A DNA stretch of 64,000 nt from Candidatus Falkowbacteria bacterium (GTDB lineage: Bacteria > Patescibacteriota > Patescibacteriia > Patescibacteriales > UBA12075): contig JAZDLN010000011.1 of NCBI GenBank assembly GCA_043801965.1, positions 44,511-108,510 of the forward strand, in the 5' to 3' direction. Both the position numbers and the translations under genes were made by a program. A model generated the notes under the pieces. That model did no database searches, was not told where the DNA came from, and worked only from the letters and a program-made list of their open reading frames with translations. Positions within the stretch are counted from its first letter, which is position 1; the number at the start of each line of letters is the position of its first letter. Positions 1,618-49,155 of the stretch are shown here, piece after piece.

Positions 1618-1622
1618 AATTG

Positions 1623-1759
1623 TGGGCGACACAAGAGTTTCCGCCCGGGGCGGATCCGCCTTTGGCGGAGAACTTGTGACCCCCGCAAATCCCGAAGCGT
1701 CGGGACACGGGGCAAGCTCTACGATGTCAATCCCGAAGCGTCGGGACTCTAACCAAAAA
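1623..1759 (-). pseudogene. decayed 3'-partial copy of tRNA-Val interrupted by three GC-rich hairpin insertions
   Basis: Segments tgggcgacacaagagtt / aacttgtgacc / tctacgatgtcaa / tctaaccaa are collinear with the intact tRNA-Val at 1790-1863. They are separated by 30-, 36- and 17-nt GC hairpins. The 5' acceptor/D strand is missing. Confidence 0.6.
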
Positions 1760-1905: not shown

Positions 1906-1926
1906 GTGCGCCCAGATGGACTTGAA
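1906..1926 (-). repeat. exact 21-nt duplicate of the 3' end of tRNA-Ile (att-like scar)
   Basis: gtgcgcccagatggacttgaa at 1906-1926 equals 2084-2104. Confidence 0.6.
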
Positions 1927-2196: not shown

Positions 2197-2345
2197 TGCC
2201 TTTTGGACTTGCCCCGTCATCCGACGGGGCACCGGGCCGGATGACCCGGTGAACCATCGACCCCAGGCTTATGAGGCTTGTGCTCCCTGCCGGCAGGCGG
2301 GTAACCAACTGCCTGTCCCGCCAAAGCGAAGCGTCAACGGGGAGT
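2197..2345 (-). pseudogene. decayed CAU-anticodon paralog of the adjacent tRNA-Ile with three GC-rich insertions
   Basis: Core GAGCACAAGCCTCATAAGCCTGGGGTCGATGGTTC is near-identical to the tRNA-Ile(UAU) body. Insertions lie in the D region (30 and 17 nt) and T-loop (40 nt). The acceptor stem is no longer complementary. Confidence 0.55.
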
Positions 2346-20117: not shown

Positions 20118-20217
20118 CAAGCCCTCTGCCCCGGCTTACTTCGTTCGCCGACCCCTCTCCGGTACCGGAGAGGGGTGCCGAGCGCAAGCGAGGCGGGGAG
20201 AGGGTTTGTTTAGAAAA
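20118..20217. repeat. GC-rich ~100-nt palindromic element, copy 1 (GGAGAGGGG family)
   Basis: aagccctctgccccggcttacttcgttcgccgacccctctccggtaccggagaggggtgccgagcgcaagcgaggcggggagagggttt. Self-complementary about the ggtacc centre. Confidence 0.8.
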
Positions 20218-20222
20218 TAAAT

Positions 20223-20585
20223 TTATCTATCCATTTCTCTTCTTATTTTCCCTATTACCGCCTGAAGGTCATCTATAACTTCGGCATTGGTAAACCTCAT
20301 AATTCTATATCCCTGCCCGATAAAAAATTCTTGCCTAAATTCATCATACTCCTTGATTTCCTCTTTATTATGTATTCCTCCGTCAACCTCAATAATCAAT
20401 CTTTTGGAAAAACAACAAAAATCAACGATATACCGATAAGAGCCGAAACAAAACGGAACCTGTCGTTTGAATTTTACGTCTAAAAAATTATTTCTAACCC
20501 TTTGCCACAGTAATTTTTCCGCTGGTGTCATTTTCTTTCGTAAAATTTTTGCGATATCGTATATGTTGGTCGGATATTTATTCAT
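20223..20585 (-). CDS. DUF559 (Vsr/restriction-endonuclease-like fold) protein
   Basis: LRKKMTPAEKLLWQRVRN...FKRQVPFGSYRYIVDFCC...LIIEVDGGIH...D..R...F...GYRIMRFTNAEV, a typical DUF559 pattern. Confidence 0.8.
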   Translation of the reverse strand: MNKYPTNIYDIAKILRKKMTPAEKLLWQRVRNNFLDVKFKRQVPFCFGSYRYIVDFCCFSKRLIIEVDGGIHNKEEIKEYDEFRQEFFIGQGYRIMRFTNAEVIDDLQAVIGKIRREMDR

Positions 20586-20632
20586 ATGTTATTACGGGCA
20601 CGGCTTTCTCTCTAATCCTCCACTCGCCTTTC

Positions 20633-20732
20633 GAGCCCTCTCCCCCGGCTCTCTTCGTTCGCCGACCCCTCTCCCTGCCTACCGGTAGGCAGGCGGTACC
20701 GGAGAGGGGTGCCGAGCGCAAGCGAGGCGGGG
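20633..20732. repeat. GC-rich palindromic element, copy 2 (same orientation as copy 1, carries a nested insertion)
   Basis: Matches copy 1 arm for arm except for 20 extra nt at the apex. Confidence 0.8.
20675..20694. repeat. 20-nt mini-palindrome nested in the apex of copy 2
   Basis: ctgcctaccggtaggcag(gc). An 18-nt perfect palindrome inserted between ctcc and ggtacc, relative to copy 1. Confidence 0.75.
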
Positions 20733-20769
20733 AGAGGGTTTTGTTTAACCGGAGAGGGGGCAAGCGTCT

Positions 20770-28598: not shown

Positions 28599-28634
28599 CA
28601 ATGGCGTTTTTTTCGTAATTAAAACCAAAAATGT

Positions 28635-31702
<3,068 letters not shown>

Positions 31703-31867: not shown

Positions 31868-31975
31868 AGCTGGCAATTAACTACTAATAAAATTAGTTGT
31901 TAATTGTTAACTGTCAATTGTCCCGGCCAAAGGCCGATCCCTGCCTACCGGCAGGCAGGCGCCTTTGGCGGAAAA
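31868..31975. repeat. AT-rich CAATTAA-type palindrome followed by nested GC mini-hairpins
   Basis: ggcaattaactactaataaaattagttgttaattgttaactgtcaattg, then ggccaaaggcc...ctgcctaccggcaggcagg...gcctttggcgg. Confidence 0.6.
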
Positions 31976-32120
31976 TGTTAATGTTGTTCAAGAAGTAGCA
32001 AAAAACCGCCTAAGCGGTTTGATAACAAGCCAGAAAGTCGGTTTAATGTTATCAAACGCTTTTTAATCTGATCATTATGCTATTCTTCATAAACATTTTT
32101 ATCTAAATTAACGTATTTAT

Positions 32121-32148
32121 ATTATACAGCATTAAAAAATAATGTCAA
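32121..32148 (-). promoter_or_regulatory. near-consensus promoter, probable rRNA promoter
   Basis: Minus strand TTGACA (32148-32143), 16-nt spacer, TATAAT (32126-32121). About 420 nt upstream of the mature 23S 5' end. Confidence 0.55.
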
Positions 32149-32334
32149 GACCGCCGTGGCCCTTAAAATGAATATTTTGGCATATTTTATTTTATTTAAT
32201 ATAAGTCATTTTATTAAATTCATTTCCCGGGCGTTTATCGCCGCGATATCGGTCATCAACATGATTTATTATTTTAAACCACCACCGGCCTTGCCGGTCG
32301 CACGGACTTAATCCCCAAGAATCTTATCGCTCTT

Positions 32335-32497
32335 TGTCATCCCGGGGCTTTAGTCTTCGAGCGAAGCGAGAAGCTAAAGAACCCGGGATCCAGGGTTTCG
32401 CGGTACTTCCATGATATTTCCGTTGACGAGTTAATTATCGCCCAACCCTGGATTCCGGATATTTTTTCCTCCGCTTGGAAAAAATTCCGGAATGACA
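32335..32497. mobile_element. MITE-like element with TGTCAT termini and subterminal hairpins
   Basis: tgtcatcccggg...cccgggatccaggg on the left and ccctggattccgga...tccggaatgaca on the right are inverted relative to each other. Confidence 0.4.
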
Positions 32498-32590
32498 AAA
32501 AACCGACTTCGCCGGAGGATATCTTAAAAAATTAACACAAATATTCAGGTAGGACATTTCTATAAAACCTTTACACATAAACAATACTTC

Positions 32591-36224: not shown

Positions 36225-36315
36225 TACCCTCTCCCCCGGCTCGCTGCGTTCGCCGACCCCTCTCCGGTACCGGAGAGGGGAGCCGAAGCGAAAGCGGGGG
36301 CAGGGAGAGGGTTTG
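36225..36315. repeat. GC-rich palindromic element, copy 3 (solo)
   Basis: ataccctctcccccggctcgctgcgttcgccgacccctctccggtaccggagaggggagccgaagcgaaagcgggggcagggagagggtttgt. Confidence 0.8.
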
Positions 36316-36348
36316 TATTGTAGGGGCTACGAACGTTTTTCAACTCAA

Positions 36349-36428
36349 AAACCCTCCCCAGACTTGGGGAGGGTGCGATCCTGAGCCGCGCCGACGGAGA
36401 GCGGGTGGGGGAAGAGCGGGGAGGGGTG
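36349..36428. repeat. degenerate GC-rich hairpin cluster related to the GGAGAGGGG family
   Basis: aaaccctcccca-gact-tggggagggt, then gacggagagcgggtgggggaagagcggggaggggtg. Confidence 0.5.
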
Positions 36429-43115: not shown

Positions 43116-44312
43116 TCAATAAATGAACATCGCGTCGCCGTAACTATAGAAACGGTATAAAGACTTTACGGCATGAGCATAGGCTCTGTCAATGTTGTCT
43201 TTGCCCGCGAAAGCCGAAACCAGCATTAAAAGAGTCGATTTCGGCAGATGAAAATTCGTGATCATGACATCGACGATCTTGAACTCGTAGCCGGGATAAA
43301 TAAATATGTCTACGTTTTTTTGAAAACCCTTAAATTGTTTTTCGTATTGAGTGTTTTGAAATTGATTATTGATTGGATATTGGATATTGGATATTGGATA
43401 TTCGGAAACCATAGCCTCAAGCGTGCGGGTCGAAGTGGTGCCTACGGTAATAATGCGTCGTCCCTGATGCTTCGCTAAATAAACGTTAGCCATGGTTTCG
43501 GCCGATACCTCGACCCATTCCGCATGCATTTTGTGATCAGTGATGATTTCCGCTTTGACCGGCGCGAAGGTGCCCAGACCCACGTGCAGCGTGACATATT
43601 CTATTTGTACGCCCTTCGCTTTTATCTTCTCCATCAATTCCGGCGTGAAATGCAGTCCGGCGGTCGGCGCCGCCACCGATCCGGTCTTATTTTTATCCGC
43701 GTAAATTGTTTGATACGATTTCTCGTCATTAATCAATTCGTTACGCGTTACGCGTTTTGCGTTACGCGAAATGTACGGTGGCAGCGGCGTCTGCCCGATT
43801 TTCTCCACGATCTTCATCATCTCCTCGCCCGCCTTATTGAATTCAACGGTAAAAGTACCGTCGCCGTTATTTTTTATTGCCAGCGCCTTAAGGCCGCCGT
43901 CAAATTCCACTTCTAAACCCTCTTTGCGCCGATGTCCCCCAACCAGGCAAATCCAGCGATCTCCCCTCGCCCGCGGCGAAGCCGGGGGAGAGGGGTCGGG
44001 GGTGAGGGCATGCACCAGAAAAACCTCAACACGCCCGCCCGTACCCTTCCGCTCCCCGATCAAGCGCGCTGGAAAAACTTTGGAATTATTCAAAACCAAA
44101 ACATCGCCGGTTCGCAAATAACCGACGATATCATAAAAATACTTGTCTTCAATTCCAGGCGCTCCCACCCCCTCTGTATCTCCCCCTCCGGCAGGGGGAG
44201 AAAAACGGCGTAATACCAAAAGCCGCGAGTGGTCCCGCGGTTCTACCGGCTCCTGAGCGATAAGCTCTTTGGGCAAATTGTAATCAAAATCGCTTAACTT
44301 CACATAACGCAT
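43116..44312 (-). CDS. queA: S-adenosylmethionine:tRNA ribosyltransferase-isomerase, carrying four in-frame repeat-derived insertions
   Basis: LSDFDYNLPKELIAQEP, PLPPYI, VAAPTAGLHFT, VTLHVGLGTF, ITVGTTS and NFHLPKSTLLMLVSAF...FYSYGDAMFI motifs. 398 aa versus the ~350 typical. Confidence 0.9.
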   Translation of the reverse strand: MRYVKLSDFDYNLPKELIAQEPVEPRDHSRLLVLRRFSPPAGGGDTEGVGAPGIEDKYFYDIVGYLRTGDVLVLNNSKVFPARLIGERKGTGGRVEVFLVHALTPDPSPPASPRARGDRWICLVGGHRRKEGLEVEFDGGLKALAIKNNGDGTFTVEFNKAGEEMMKIVEKIGQTPLPPYISRNAKRVTRNELINDEKSYQTIYADKNKTGSVAAPTAGLHFTPELMEKIKAKGVQIEYVTLHVGLGTFAPVKAEIITDHKMHAEWVEVSAETMANVYLAKHQGRRIITVGTTSTRTLEAMVSEYPISNIQYPINNQFQNTQYEKQFKGFQKNVDIFIYPGYEFKIVDVMITNFHLPKSTLLMLVSAFAGKDNIDRAYAHAVKSLYRFYSYGDAMFIY

Positions 44313-48600: not shown

Positions 48601-48674
48601 GAATTTTGGTTTATCCTTAAAATAAATATATCACACTAACATTATAACACAGAAAGCTAGGAAAAAACACAAAT

Positions 48675-48700
48675 AAAAAATACCCTACGGAGTATTTTTT
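48675..48700 (-). terminator. weak AT-rich hairpin/T-run after tRNA-Arg
   Basis: aaaaaatacc-ctac-ggagtatttttt. Confidence 0.4.
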
Positions 48701-48705
48701 ATTTG

Positions 48706-48777
48706 TGCTCTCGGTTGGAATCGAACCAACATTACAAGTTCCGGAAACTTGCGTCCTATCCATTGAACGACGAGAGC
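48706..48777 (-). tRNA. tRNA-Arg (anticodon CCG)
   Basis: Reverse complement GCTCTCGTCGTTCAATGGATAGGACGCAAGTTTCCGGAACTTGTAATGTTGGTTCGATTCCAACCGAGAGCA. Anticodon loop TTCCGGA. Confidence 0.9.
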
Positions 48778-48791
48778 GTTTTTATCATTGT

Positions 48792-48892
48792 ACTTGCGTC
48801 CTACTTGCCCGCCGAAGTCCCGACGCTTCGGGACGCAGGTGGGTCCATTGTCCGCCAAAGGAGGATCAGCCTCTGGCTGAAACGACGAGAGC
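48792..48892 (-). pseudogene. tRNA-Arg 5'-half copy 1 (positions 1-31) with 30- and 40-nt hairpin insertions in the D arm
   Basis: acttgcgtccta[40 nt]tccattg[30 nt]aacgacgagagc is collinear with 48749-48777. Confidence 0.6.
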
Positions 48893-48912
48893 ATAAAATA
48901 TTATATTGTAAA

Positions 48913-49008
48913 TGCGTCCTACTTGCCCGCCGAAGTCCCGACGCTTCGGGACGCAGGCGGGTCCATTGTCCGTCAAAGGCGGGGAGCCTCTGGCTGAAAC
49001 GACGAGAG
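48913..49008 (-). pseudogene. tRNA-Arg 5'-half copy 2, tandem duplicate of copy 1
   Basis: Same architecture about 120 nt further on, with a few substitutions (ggtggg to ggcggg, gaggatcagcc to gcggggagcc). Confidence 0.6.
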
Positions 49009-49155
49009 TGTTGTTTATTTTTTTGCTTGCGCCCTGCCCGACCGCATAAAGGCGTAAAAAACGAATATGCTCCCATATTACATGTTTTGACGGAATTTGT
49101 CCAGTGTCGGAAATATGCTATAATAAGAATAATCTAAGTAAATTAAATAAAAAAT

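Follow-up and report, generated by a model that had tools for sequence, protein, structure and literature searches.

Tandem, hairpin-interrupted partial copies of tRNA-Arg(CCG) upstream of the intact gene in a Candidatus Falkowbacteria genome

How does a tRNA gene come to be preceded by copies of its own 5' half, each broken by the same palindromic inserts, and do such copies have a function? The question is raised by the tRNA-Arg(CCG) locus of a Candidatus Falkowbacteria bacterium (Patescibacteriota), which lies in a stretch of 64,000 nucleotides (assembly GCA_043801965.1, contig JAZDLN010000011.1, positions 44,511 to 108,510) that is called the window here and to whose first letter all window coordinates refer. 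The copies, referred to as units, are partial copies of the adjacent tRNA-Arg(CCG), unable to decode and, on the reading favoured here, non-functional. The locus is mostly explained as a dynamic array of pseudo-tRNA repeats with mobile hairpins; the cross-species invariance of a 56-nt core leaves room for a function.

The intact tRNA-Arg(CCG), the source of the duplicated 5' half, was called at 48705-48777 on the minus strand by ARAGORN and by the Rfam tRNA model (61 bits), and all features of the array lie on the same strand. Within 230 nt upstream of it, in the tRNA sense, are two head-to-tail direct repeats with a start-to-start spacing of 118/117 nt, confirming the two tandem units of ~100 nt that had been noticed from the sequence. 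Unit 1 (48792-48892; exact blastn matches of 12 + 12 nt, direct-repeat family D1/D2) reads exactly as first described. It begins with tRNA positions 1-12 (GCTCTCGTCGTT, 48892-48881), followed by a 30-nt twin mini-hairpin composed of TCAGCCAGAGGCTGA and TCCTCCTTTGGCGGA between positions 12 and 13 (insert 1, 48851-48880), positions 13-19 (CAATGGA, 48850-48844), a 40-nt nested hairpin placed in the D loop after A20 (insert 2, 48804-48843) and, finally, positions 20-31 (TAGGACGCAAGT, 48803-48792). Insert 2 is made up of an outer stem (CCCACC/GGCGGG), an inner hairpin (GTCCCGA-AGCG-TCGGGAC) and a CAAG tail, and its 30-nt core occurs twice in the window against zero occurrences expected. The tRNA-derived pieces of unit 1 (12+7+12 nt) match tRNA positions 1-31 without exception (31/31). 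Position 31, at which the anticodon stem's 5' strand is complete, is the last to show homology to the tRNA, the very boundary originally proposed, and homology between the repeats runs ~5 nt (ACAAT) further, into the spacers.

Unit 2 (48910-49009; direct repeat, blastn and alignment) follows the same plan with 9 differences from unit 1 over ~101 positions, so the two are close, as had been claimed, without being identical. Its tRNA-derived pieces match the tRNA at 27/31 positions, the changes lying at the edges (A for G at position 1 and TTT for AGT at positions 29-31). The twin hairpin of unit 2 (48969-48997) has four substitutions and a 1-nt deletion relative to that of unit 1, leaving it 29 nt long, and the nested hairpin (48922-48961) differs in one base of the outer stem and is a perfect palindrome. 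Spacer 1, from unit 1 to the tRNA (ACAATGATAAAAAC, 48778-48791), and spacer 2, from unit 2 to unit 1 (ACAATATAATATTTTAT, 48893-48909; sequence and alignment), have ACAAT..ATAA in common, and the duplicated segment therefore took in the upstream leader. Furthermore, a third, decayed partial unit (...CGGTCGGGCAGGGCGCAAGC and an A-rich spacer, ~49010-49051) closes the 66-nt stretch from the promoter to unit 2; its local alignment to the 3' part of unit 1 scores 30.8, above all 500 shuffles. Decay thus follows a gradient: unit 1 is intact in its tRNA-derived pieces, unit 2 has lost both edges and two hairpin pairs, and unit 3 has lost most of its hairpins.

A sigma-70-type promoter, TGGACA-17-TAATAT (49075-49103, minus strand; promoter scan), is found upstream of the entire array and is conserved in two syntenic relatives, L120 and L131, which are introduced below; CTGGACAAATT...TAATAT precedes tRNA-Arg(CCG) in all three, and the bases between the hexamers are not conserved. 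A terminator scan found none between the units and tRNA-Arg. Because a conserved promoter lies upstream of the array and no terminator separates the units from the tRNA, the units are placed within the tRNA-Arg 5' leader. Internal promoters in the spacers were rejected after inspection by eye, as the -10-like hexamers there have no credible -35 partners. The less favoured part of the preliminary description, a transcribed tRNA-half-like RNA, is therefore retained only in modified form: judging by their leader position, the units are probably transcribed, but as part of a pre-tRNA leader and not as independent halves. Directly 3' of tRNA-Arg is an AT-rich intrinsic terminator (48666-48709, minus strand; terminator scan, inverted repeat I2), standing where L120 and L131 have a 3' relic or hairpin module.

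Nothing in the units themselves resembles a complete tRNA or a known RNA. ARAGORN called only the intact gene and no tRNA in the units, and an Rfam scan of 48780-49110 gave no family match even at E<=1. The units contain neither an anticodon loop nor a 3' half, and their D arm is loaded with 70 nt of inserts. A complementary 3' half, the search for which had been suggested, was sought in the window by blastn and no second copy of the tRNA-Arg 3' half was found, so that the locus is not a split tRNA. Within the window, the unit was found only at the tRNA-Arg locus. Six-frame translations of the units, used as a pseudo-protein query for spurious open reading frames (ORFs) over homologous units, gave no matches.

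The history of the array is best seen in comparison with relatives. The exonuclease of the window is 100% identical to MFH0891414.1 from a Candidatus Falkowbacteria metagenome-assembled genome, and the neighbours of the locus (NUDIX, exonuclease, RuvB, hemerythrin and Ham1) are matched in their order in relatives. Exact-protein look-ups with the NUDIX and hemerythrin of the window, and with P0001 and P0122, gave no recorded match. Three syntenic Falkowbacteria were compared: the window, the L120 type (L120, L121, L123 and L124) and L131. The L120 type corresponds to Falkowbacteria RIFOXYB2_FULL_47_14, has the order Ham1, hemerythrin, tRNA-Arg, NUDIX, exonuclease, RuvB as in the window, and its genes share 78-90% nucleotide identity with those of the window; its tRNA-Arg(CCG) is 100% identical to that of the window, and it contains zero units, only a 35-nt leader. 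In L131, which is an independent Logan assembly, the same promoter and tRNA-Arg have a single unit (1339-1434) between them. Identity at four-fold synonymous sites is 0.51 between L131 and the window, 0.55 between L131 and L120 and 0.66 between the window and L120, and L131 is accordingly placed outside the pair formed by the other two. Copy number across the three syntenic species is thus 0 (L120 type), 1 (L131) and 2 plus a decayed third (window), which bears out the variation in related genomes that the preliminary description had proposed to look for. No unit was detected at the more distant or rearranged loci of L001, L116-119 and L138; in L001, whose RuvB is 81% identical, matches to the tRNA in the flanks of that tRNA extend over 9 nt only and are individually non-significant. 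The NUDIX and exonuclease homologues of L116-119 and L132-137 were discarded as comparison loci since they are not syntenic.

Two properties of the unit in L131 stand out. The acceptor stems of the two tRNAs differ, being GCACCCG/CGGGTGC in L131 and GCTCTCG/CGAGAGC in the window, and the L131 unit bears the L131 version. In addition, the segment before each copy repeats the segment before the tRNA in either species (AAACATAAT in L131, ACAAT.ATAA in the window). Meanwhile, the 40-nt nested hairpin is present in L131 at the same site and matches that of window unit 2 at 40/40 positions and that of unit 1 at 39/40. As the single unit of L131 already has this insert, the inserts are older than the duplication that separated units 1 and 2, as had been supposed. 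The 56-nt core (CAATGGA, the nested hairpin and TAGGAYGCA) is identical between the window and L131 at 55/56 positions, with one 1-nt indel; at a neutral identity of 0.51, taken from the four-fold sites of three flanking genes, the chance of a 40/40 match is ~2e-12. The rest of the array has diverged. Insert 1 occupies the same site in L131 but differs in length and retains only ~10/16 identity over its 3' part, and the promoter spacer, the leader and the inter-unit spacers are unalignable between species. Hairpin inserts in general are not conserved between these species, because a site in queA holds different inserts in the window and in L120; hairpin content therefore turns over at shared sites, both in insert 1 of the unit and in queA.

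Downstream of the tRNA, L131 contains a 3' relic consisting of GATTC, 46 nt of hairpins and CAACCGGGTGCAC, again in the L131 acceptor version. The minimum-energy fold of the whole L131 transcript leaves the tRNA correctly folded and encloses it by pairing of the 5' and 3' mimics; in that of the window, which is without a 3' mimic, the acceptor strand of the unit competes for the 3' strand of the tRNA. A downstream hairpin module, GGGACGGAGACCCCGCC..GGCGGGGCAACCG, is conserved between L120 and L131. Such 3'-end relics, each comprising a T-loop piece, GC-rich hairpins and the T-stem with the acceptor 3' strand, follow tRNA-Arg or tRNA-Ser in several relatives (L131, 1555-1618; L120, 5140-5192; L001, 941-988; L138, 2820-2884). 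The acceptor strand of the L001 relic, CAGGTGC, is closer to the L131 allele than to its own tRNA, and in L138 the spacer after tRNA-Ser appears, by eye, to hold a 3' relic split by a hairpin.

The reading favoured here, in which confidence is about even, is that the units are partial tandem duplicates of the leader and tRNA 5' half that hairpins have colonised, that misaligned recombination with the gene keeps uniform and that are transcribed as leader. The first copy would have arisen by a tandem duplication, one end-point of which fell in the anticodon loop; once freed, this copy could take up GC-rich palindromic mini-elements at or beside the D loop. Through misaligned recombination or replication slippage, exchange between the copies and the real gene would then expand and contract the array and, by the same process, repeatedly overwrite the tRNA-derived pieces with the sequence of the resident tRNA, new copies being born beside the gene and older ones decaying at the promoter end. 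The units would be transcribed from the conserved promoter within a leader of ~300 nt, and RNase P cleavage at the tRNA 5' end would presumably release this leader together with the units. Such a history would account for the copy numbers, the leader repetition, the tracking of the acceptor strand and the decay gradient.

Several points weigh against it. Identity at 55/56 positions of the core and 40/40 of the hairpin, across species with 51% four-fold identity, is too high for debris that evolves neutrally. Since the nested hairpin has no counterpart in the tRNA, recombination with the tRNA cannot account for its invariance, and a duplicate array leaves that invariance unexplained. The tracts of homology available for recombination are short, at 7-12 nt plus ~10 nt of leader, and insertion at loop edges could reflect a structural filter, i.e. 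selection for the fold, and not a preference of insertion. The original inference of degenerate duplication debris colonised by mini-hairpins is consequently upheld in part: the units are partial duplicates and the hairpins belong to dispersed families, but degenerate debris does not fit a core so well conserved or an acceptor strand that tracks the resident tRNA. Taken together, core conservation and acceptor-strand tracking mean that some constraint or homogenising process acts.

The constraint might be function, and a selected cis-acting leader element is a rival explanation to be taken seriously, though less likely than the favoured one. Here the core and the free acceptor 5' strand would be a conserved structured part of pre-tRNA-Arg(CCG), which could pair with the 3' strand of the tRNA or with a downstream 3' mimic and affect how the transcript folds, its processing by RNase P, its stability or its yield; another possibility is that the inverted repeat is a DNA operator. 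The survival of the core amid diverged synonymous sites, spacers and insert 1 argues for this, as do the co-variation of the unit acceptor strand with the resident tRNA (GCTCTCG or GCACCCG), the matching 3' strand CAACCGGGTGCAC in L131 with a fold that pairs both mimics around the tRNA, and the module conserved between L120 and L131. Moreover, all inserts lie at loop edges, as expected if the D-arm fold had to be kept. Yet the unit is dispensable, since the closest species, L120, has an identical tRNA and no unit, and the window has no 3' mimic. In the tRNA sense, the fold energies of the units are no better than those of shuffled sequence (z of -1.0, -1.1 and -0.3), while the antisense strand of unit 1 folds better (z = -3.7), and members of the same hairpin families are found in both orientations with respect to transcription. 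Stem-breaking changes are present in both window copies, the third is decayed, and the co-variation is seen across three sequences only. The same combination of an identical hairpin and a match to each resident tRNA would also be explained by recurrent site-specific insertion, the 40-mer being an active mini-element strict for the D loop of tRNA-Arg(CCG) and the units young and independent in each lineage. This has a slim chance of being right: it is in keeping with the presence of the same insert at the same site in two species with different acceptor stems, and with hairpin families that are clearly mobile or at least recurrent, but the same duplication end-points and the second site at 12|13 must then recur independently. 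Furthermore, the flanks of related nested or outer hairpins (in a tRNA-Val relic of the window, in L001 and in queA of L007) have no common motif. No further copy of the 40-mer was found in the window or in a Joint Genome Institute (JGI) metagenome scan, nor any copy of the 26-nt core of the nested hairpin in viral contigs.

It seems quite unlikely that the units are the scars of a mobile insertion (a homing-endonuclease cassette, or an intron-borne or integrase-type element) that entered the anticodon loop more than once, bringing a replacement leader and 5' part, with its interior later deleted and the displaced 5' half left beside the restored gene. Integrase attachment-site (att) duplications involve the 3' part of a tRNA and not the 5' part, which speaks against it. 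In its favour, the end of the relic coincides with the anticodon loop, which introns and integrases classically target. There are parallels elsewhere. In L011 (5170-5566), a 79-aa GIY-YIG ORF (Pfam PF01541, E=2e-18) stands between the intact tRNA-Leu and a 5' relic of tRNA-Leu(TAA) (positions 1-42) whose D loop contains a 20-nt hairpin. In the viral contig L185 (480-1300), a 5' relic with a D-loop hairpin is followed by what reads by eye as a GIY-YIG-like ORF, then by a second tRNA copy whose anticodon loop appears, again by eye, to be interrupted by an intron-like insert with an HNH-type ORF. Mobile insertion at the anticodon loop is thus one way in which 5' relics come about in these lineages, and partial tRNA genes left by element integration are well documented (PMC9897764). 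In the window, however, the spacers are 14-17 nt long without trace of an ORF and repeat the native leader, which plain tandem duplication can explain. The flanking genes are conserved and of housekeeping type in all three species, and no integrase or endonuclease was found among the translated flanking ORFs or the genes of the relatives.

Next to no credence can be given to a split or trans-acting tRNA half, in which the 5' halves would be joined to or paired with a separate 3' half. The resemblance is that the unit ends at the anticodon stem and has ends complementary to the tRNA-Arg 3' half. An intact tRNA-Arg(CCG) lies 14 nt downstream, the window holds no separate 3' half, a sister species manages without the unit, and the missing anticodon loop and the overloaded D arm are equally contrary; the preliminary description had been right to doubt it. 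Moreover, the host is bacterial, and split tRNA genes and the bulge-helix-bulge splicing endonuclease are archaeal. Other candidates were dropped outright. An array of the CRISPR or of the tandem interspaced guide RNA (TIGR) type does not fit two to three tRNA-derived units without variable spacers. An att-site duplication was ruled out by a repeat that is the 5' part, by spacers of 14 and 17 nt and by the lack of adjacent integrase or element genes. A tRNA-derived short interspersed nuclear element (SINE) or miniature inverted-repeat transposable element (MITE) was ruled out since the unit is found at one locus in the window and nowhere in the metagenome scan. An endonuclease or intron between the 5' part and the gene is absent from the window, with its 14-nt spacer, and present in L011 and apparently in L185.

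The partial-duplication reading assigns the inserts to families that exist outside the units, and these hairpin inserts are clearly dispersed palindromic families, mobile or at least recurrent. The twin-hairpin family occurs at 1640-1669 (in the tRNA-Val relic, where the likeness of a 15+15 insert had been pointed out), 31921-31972 (23S leader), 48851-48880 and 48969-48997, and across three loci one stem position of its second hairpin is C-G, A-T or G-C. The inner 16-mer TCCCGA-NNNN-TCGGGA has four copies in the window, in both orientations and all in tRNA relics. The outer hairpin, CTTGYCC..GGYGGG, is found without the inner one just 3' of the syntenic tRNA-Arg in L001 and within the queA frame in L007. 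A CCTGCC..GGCAGG hairpin recurs at 2286-2301 (within a tRNA-Ile relic), 20674-20693 and 31940-31959, and a filled and empty pair is provided by a palindrome at 20151-20176 whose other copy, at 20666-20712, has an inserted 20-nt hairpin close to the tip. Inserts in tRNA relics lie mostly at or beside the D loop or the T loop, and no target-site duplication was seen beside them on direct reading. None of the 10 window ORFs scanned against Pfam is a transposase.

Beyond the window, the 20-nt palindrome CCTGCCTRCCGGYAGGCAGG was found in 57 copies in 48 viral-contig stretches of widely differing GC content. Specificity of the 20-nt CCTGCC hairpin for tRNAs was considered and rejected, as in-silico excision restores a tRNA in only 1/57 viral copies. 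The viral contig L174 (2239-2330) has a tRNA-Met(CAT) whose variable loop contains CCTGCCTGCCGGCAGGCAGG; ARAGORN recognises this tRNA both with the insert and, at normal length, after in-silico excision. A scan of viral contigs with the inner 16-mer gave chance matches in coding regions only, and a single metagenome scan with CTTGCCC..TCCCGACGCTTCGGGA recovered no relative of the units, mostly Flavo-1 RNA (RF01705) from one Flavobacterium-rich sample. Among the loci L098-L115 (mostly from metagenome Ga0247722), at least 14 copies of a repeat of ~150-200 nt are present in AT-rich contigs (e.g. L104, 3151-3178 and 9033-9060). These copies hold the TCCCGA-CGCT/AGCG-TCGGGA mini-hairpin at differing positions and in both orientations; one copy each in L098 and L114 overlaps Rfam Flavo-1 (RF01705), and L100, L109 and L113 have three more Flavo-1 matches elsewhere.

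Other tRNA relics are present in the window. At 1622-1756 (minus strand) is a tRNA-Val 3' relic (positions 16-75) directly 3' of the intact tRNA-Val (1789-1863), in which a TCCCGACGCTTCGGGA hairpin takes the place of the anticodon stem's 5' strand, the variable loop holds a nested hairpin of 36 nt and the T loop the twin 15+15 hairpin at 1640-1669. A tRNA-Ile(TAT) relic at 2204-2311 (minus strand; ~positions 13-65) lies upstream of the intact gene (2084-2158), with hairpins in its T loop and at the edge of its D loop. For Ile, a TAT anticodon is uncommon in bacteria. About 155 nt downstream, at 1906-1926 (minus strand), there is a 21-nt copy of the tRNA-Ile 3' end (positions 55-75) with the hairpin GGGGCTTCCGCCCC before it.

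The 23S rRNA gene (28634-31701, minus strand) spans 3068 nt against a 2925-nt model, ~140 nt extra, and no 16S gene was found within the window. Three different helices (29358-29375, 29753-29770 and 31453-31468, minus strand) are capped by the same GNRA hairpin, CCCGAGCAAUCGGG; by Rfam alignment, two are consensus helices in shortened form, and the third is part of a local insertion that has 22 nt where the model has 8. One of the three is identical in L002, and their interpretation as insertions was rejected, given that they replace longer native helices and are shared with L002. In the 23S leader (31921-31972, minus strand), the first hairpin of the twin is split by a nested 20-nt hairpin, CCTGCCTGCCGGTAGGCAGG, and a near-perfect TTGACA-17-TATAAT promoter is situated upstream, near 32110-32150.

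Palindromic elements abound across the window, larger ones included. One of ~170 nt at 32333-32500 has the ends TTTGTCATTCCG...CGGGATGACAAA, and related copies of ~100 nt lie in-frame within queA in L007 (3055-3170 and 3293-3395), whose product has 463 aa against a Pfam profile of 322 positions. The queA of the window (43116-44312, minus strand; 398 aa) has an extra GC-rich segment, especially at 43952-44016; at that site the window and L120 have different inserts and L007 has none. From their sequence, these queA inserts look like in-frame insertions similar to Rickettsia palindromic elements (RPE) that turn over between species. A DUF559 endonuclease-like gene (ORF 20223-20585, minus strand) is bracketed by direct palindrome copies of ~85 nt at 20120-20205 and 20625-20740, and GC-rich clusters similar to these occur at 36225-36428.

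Self-relics are not confined to this window. ARAGORN was run on all fetched loci, with 300 nt examined on each side of every tRNA. A same-strand self-copy of >=10 nt within 300 nt was found for 12/51 non-redundant tRNAs of the Candidate Phyla Radiation (CPR) against 1/51 in the antisense control, in a sample that includes the window and relatives chosen for this finding. Beyond the genus, a tRNA-Gly 5' relic in L011 has at position 10|11 the same 20-nt hairpin as the tRNA-Leu(TAA) relic there, and 3'-end tRNA relics are present in L024 and L132. A wider proposal, regarded as unlikely, is that Patescibacteria tRNA genes are routinely flanked by mimics of their 5' and 3' ends with stereotyped GC-rich hairpins on the D- and T-loops, and that a lineage-wide process installs mini-hairpins at stem-loop tips. 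Its examples would be the tRNA relics, the tRNA variable loop, the 23S leader, the Flavo-1 RNA copies and, possibly, the three 23S helices with identical caps. For tRNA-Arg(CCG), the proposal would make the 5' mimic a transcribed leader module, conserved and evolving in concert with the acceptor stem, that influences in cis how the pre-tRNA folds or is processed; where a 3' mimic is present, the two would pair.

Very small genomes are usually deemed streamlined, and this locus instead displays birth-and-death evolution of a tandem tRNA-fragment array, which appears to be homogenised against the live gene and repeatedly colonised by palindromic mini-elements. A 56-nt core conserved where silent sites are near saturation could mark a new cis-acting pre-tRNA leader element or a site-specific mini-element. 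In practical terms, tRNA look-alike fragments and hairpin inserts in CPR genomes can confuse tRNA counts, break assemblies and spawn spurious ORFs (e.g. 48703-49137).

Among known systems, the split tRNA genes of Nanoarchaeum equitans and Caldivirga have no intact gene, have complementary leader and trailer sequences, and have their halves joined by archaeal splicing. The window units resemble them as a stand-alone 5' portion that ends near the anticodon arm, and no other trait of split tRNAs applies. Repetitive extragenic palindromic (REP) sequences, with the bacterial interspersed mosaic elements (BIME) and REP doublets (REPIN) that they form, are short imperfect palindromes in singlets or doublets that are mobilised by REP-associated tyrosine transposases (RAYT), are thought to act as single-stranded hairpins, insert without target-site duplication and are extragenic. 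The inserts described here are likewise short palindromes in singlets and doublets without target-site duplication. Unlike REPs, they are accompanied by no RAYT or IS200/IS605 transposase among the window ORFs scanned, which are part of the total, and REPs are not known to pile up in tRNA relics. The RPEs described by Ogata et al. in 2000/2002 are reportedly of 100-150 bp, fall into defined families and, in a bacterium with a small genome, enter intergenic DNA, RNA genes and, in-frame, protein genes. By description, the in-frame case is paralleled here in queA of the window, L120 and L007, whereas the unit inserts are only 15-40 nt long.

A literature search, of incomplete coverage and therefore no proof of absence, found no description of hairpin-interrupted tRNA self-relics in Patescibacteria. 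The nearest analogues of the inserts include, beside the RPEs and the REP/REPIN elements, the repetitive hairpin elements of fungal and sponge mitochondria (hairpin-forming, double-hairpin and GC-cluster elements), which are 15-20 bp long, single, doublet or nested, scattered in intergenic DNA and rRNA genes, subject to compensatory stem changes and without a known transposase (PMC2800124). The window inserts are, like them, dispersed, short, GC-rich palindromes in single, doublet or nested form, with stems kept by compensatory change and with presence or absence at homologous sites. They differ in belonging to a free bacterial genome, in piling up at D- and T-loop edges of tRNA relics and in that one copy is conserved across species. 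The units themselves, being identical to a contiguous part of a tRNA, without a cloverleaf and variable in copy number, have the properties of tRNA gene fragments. Partial, non-canonical tRNA genes beside prokaryotic tRNA genes have been catalogued by van der Gulik et al. 2023 and are mostly 3' fragments that stem from integrating elements or CRISPR activity (PMC9897764). The units share with these fragments a tRNA piece in direct orientation beside the intact gene, the lack of a cloverleaf and a probable origin as a by-product of genome rearrangement; they are set apart as 5' halves that form a short tandem array in the leader, have no associated element and are interrupted by hairpins.

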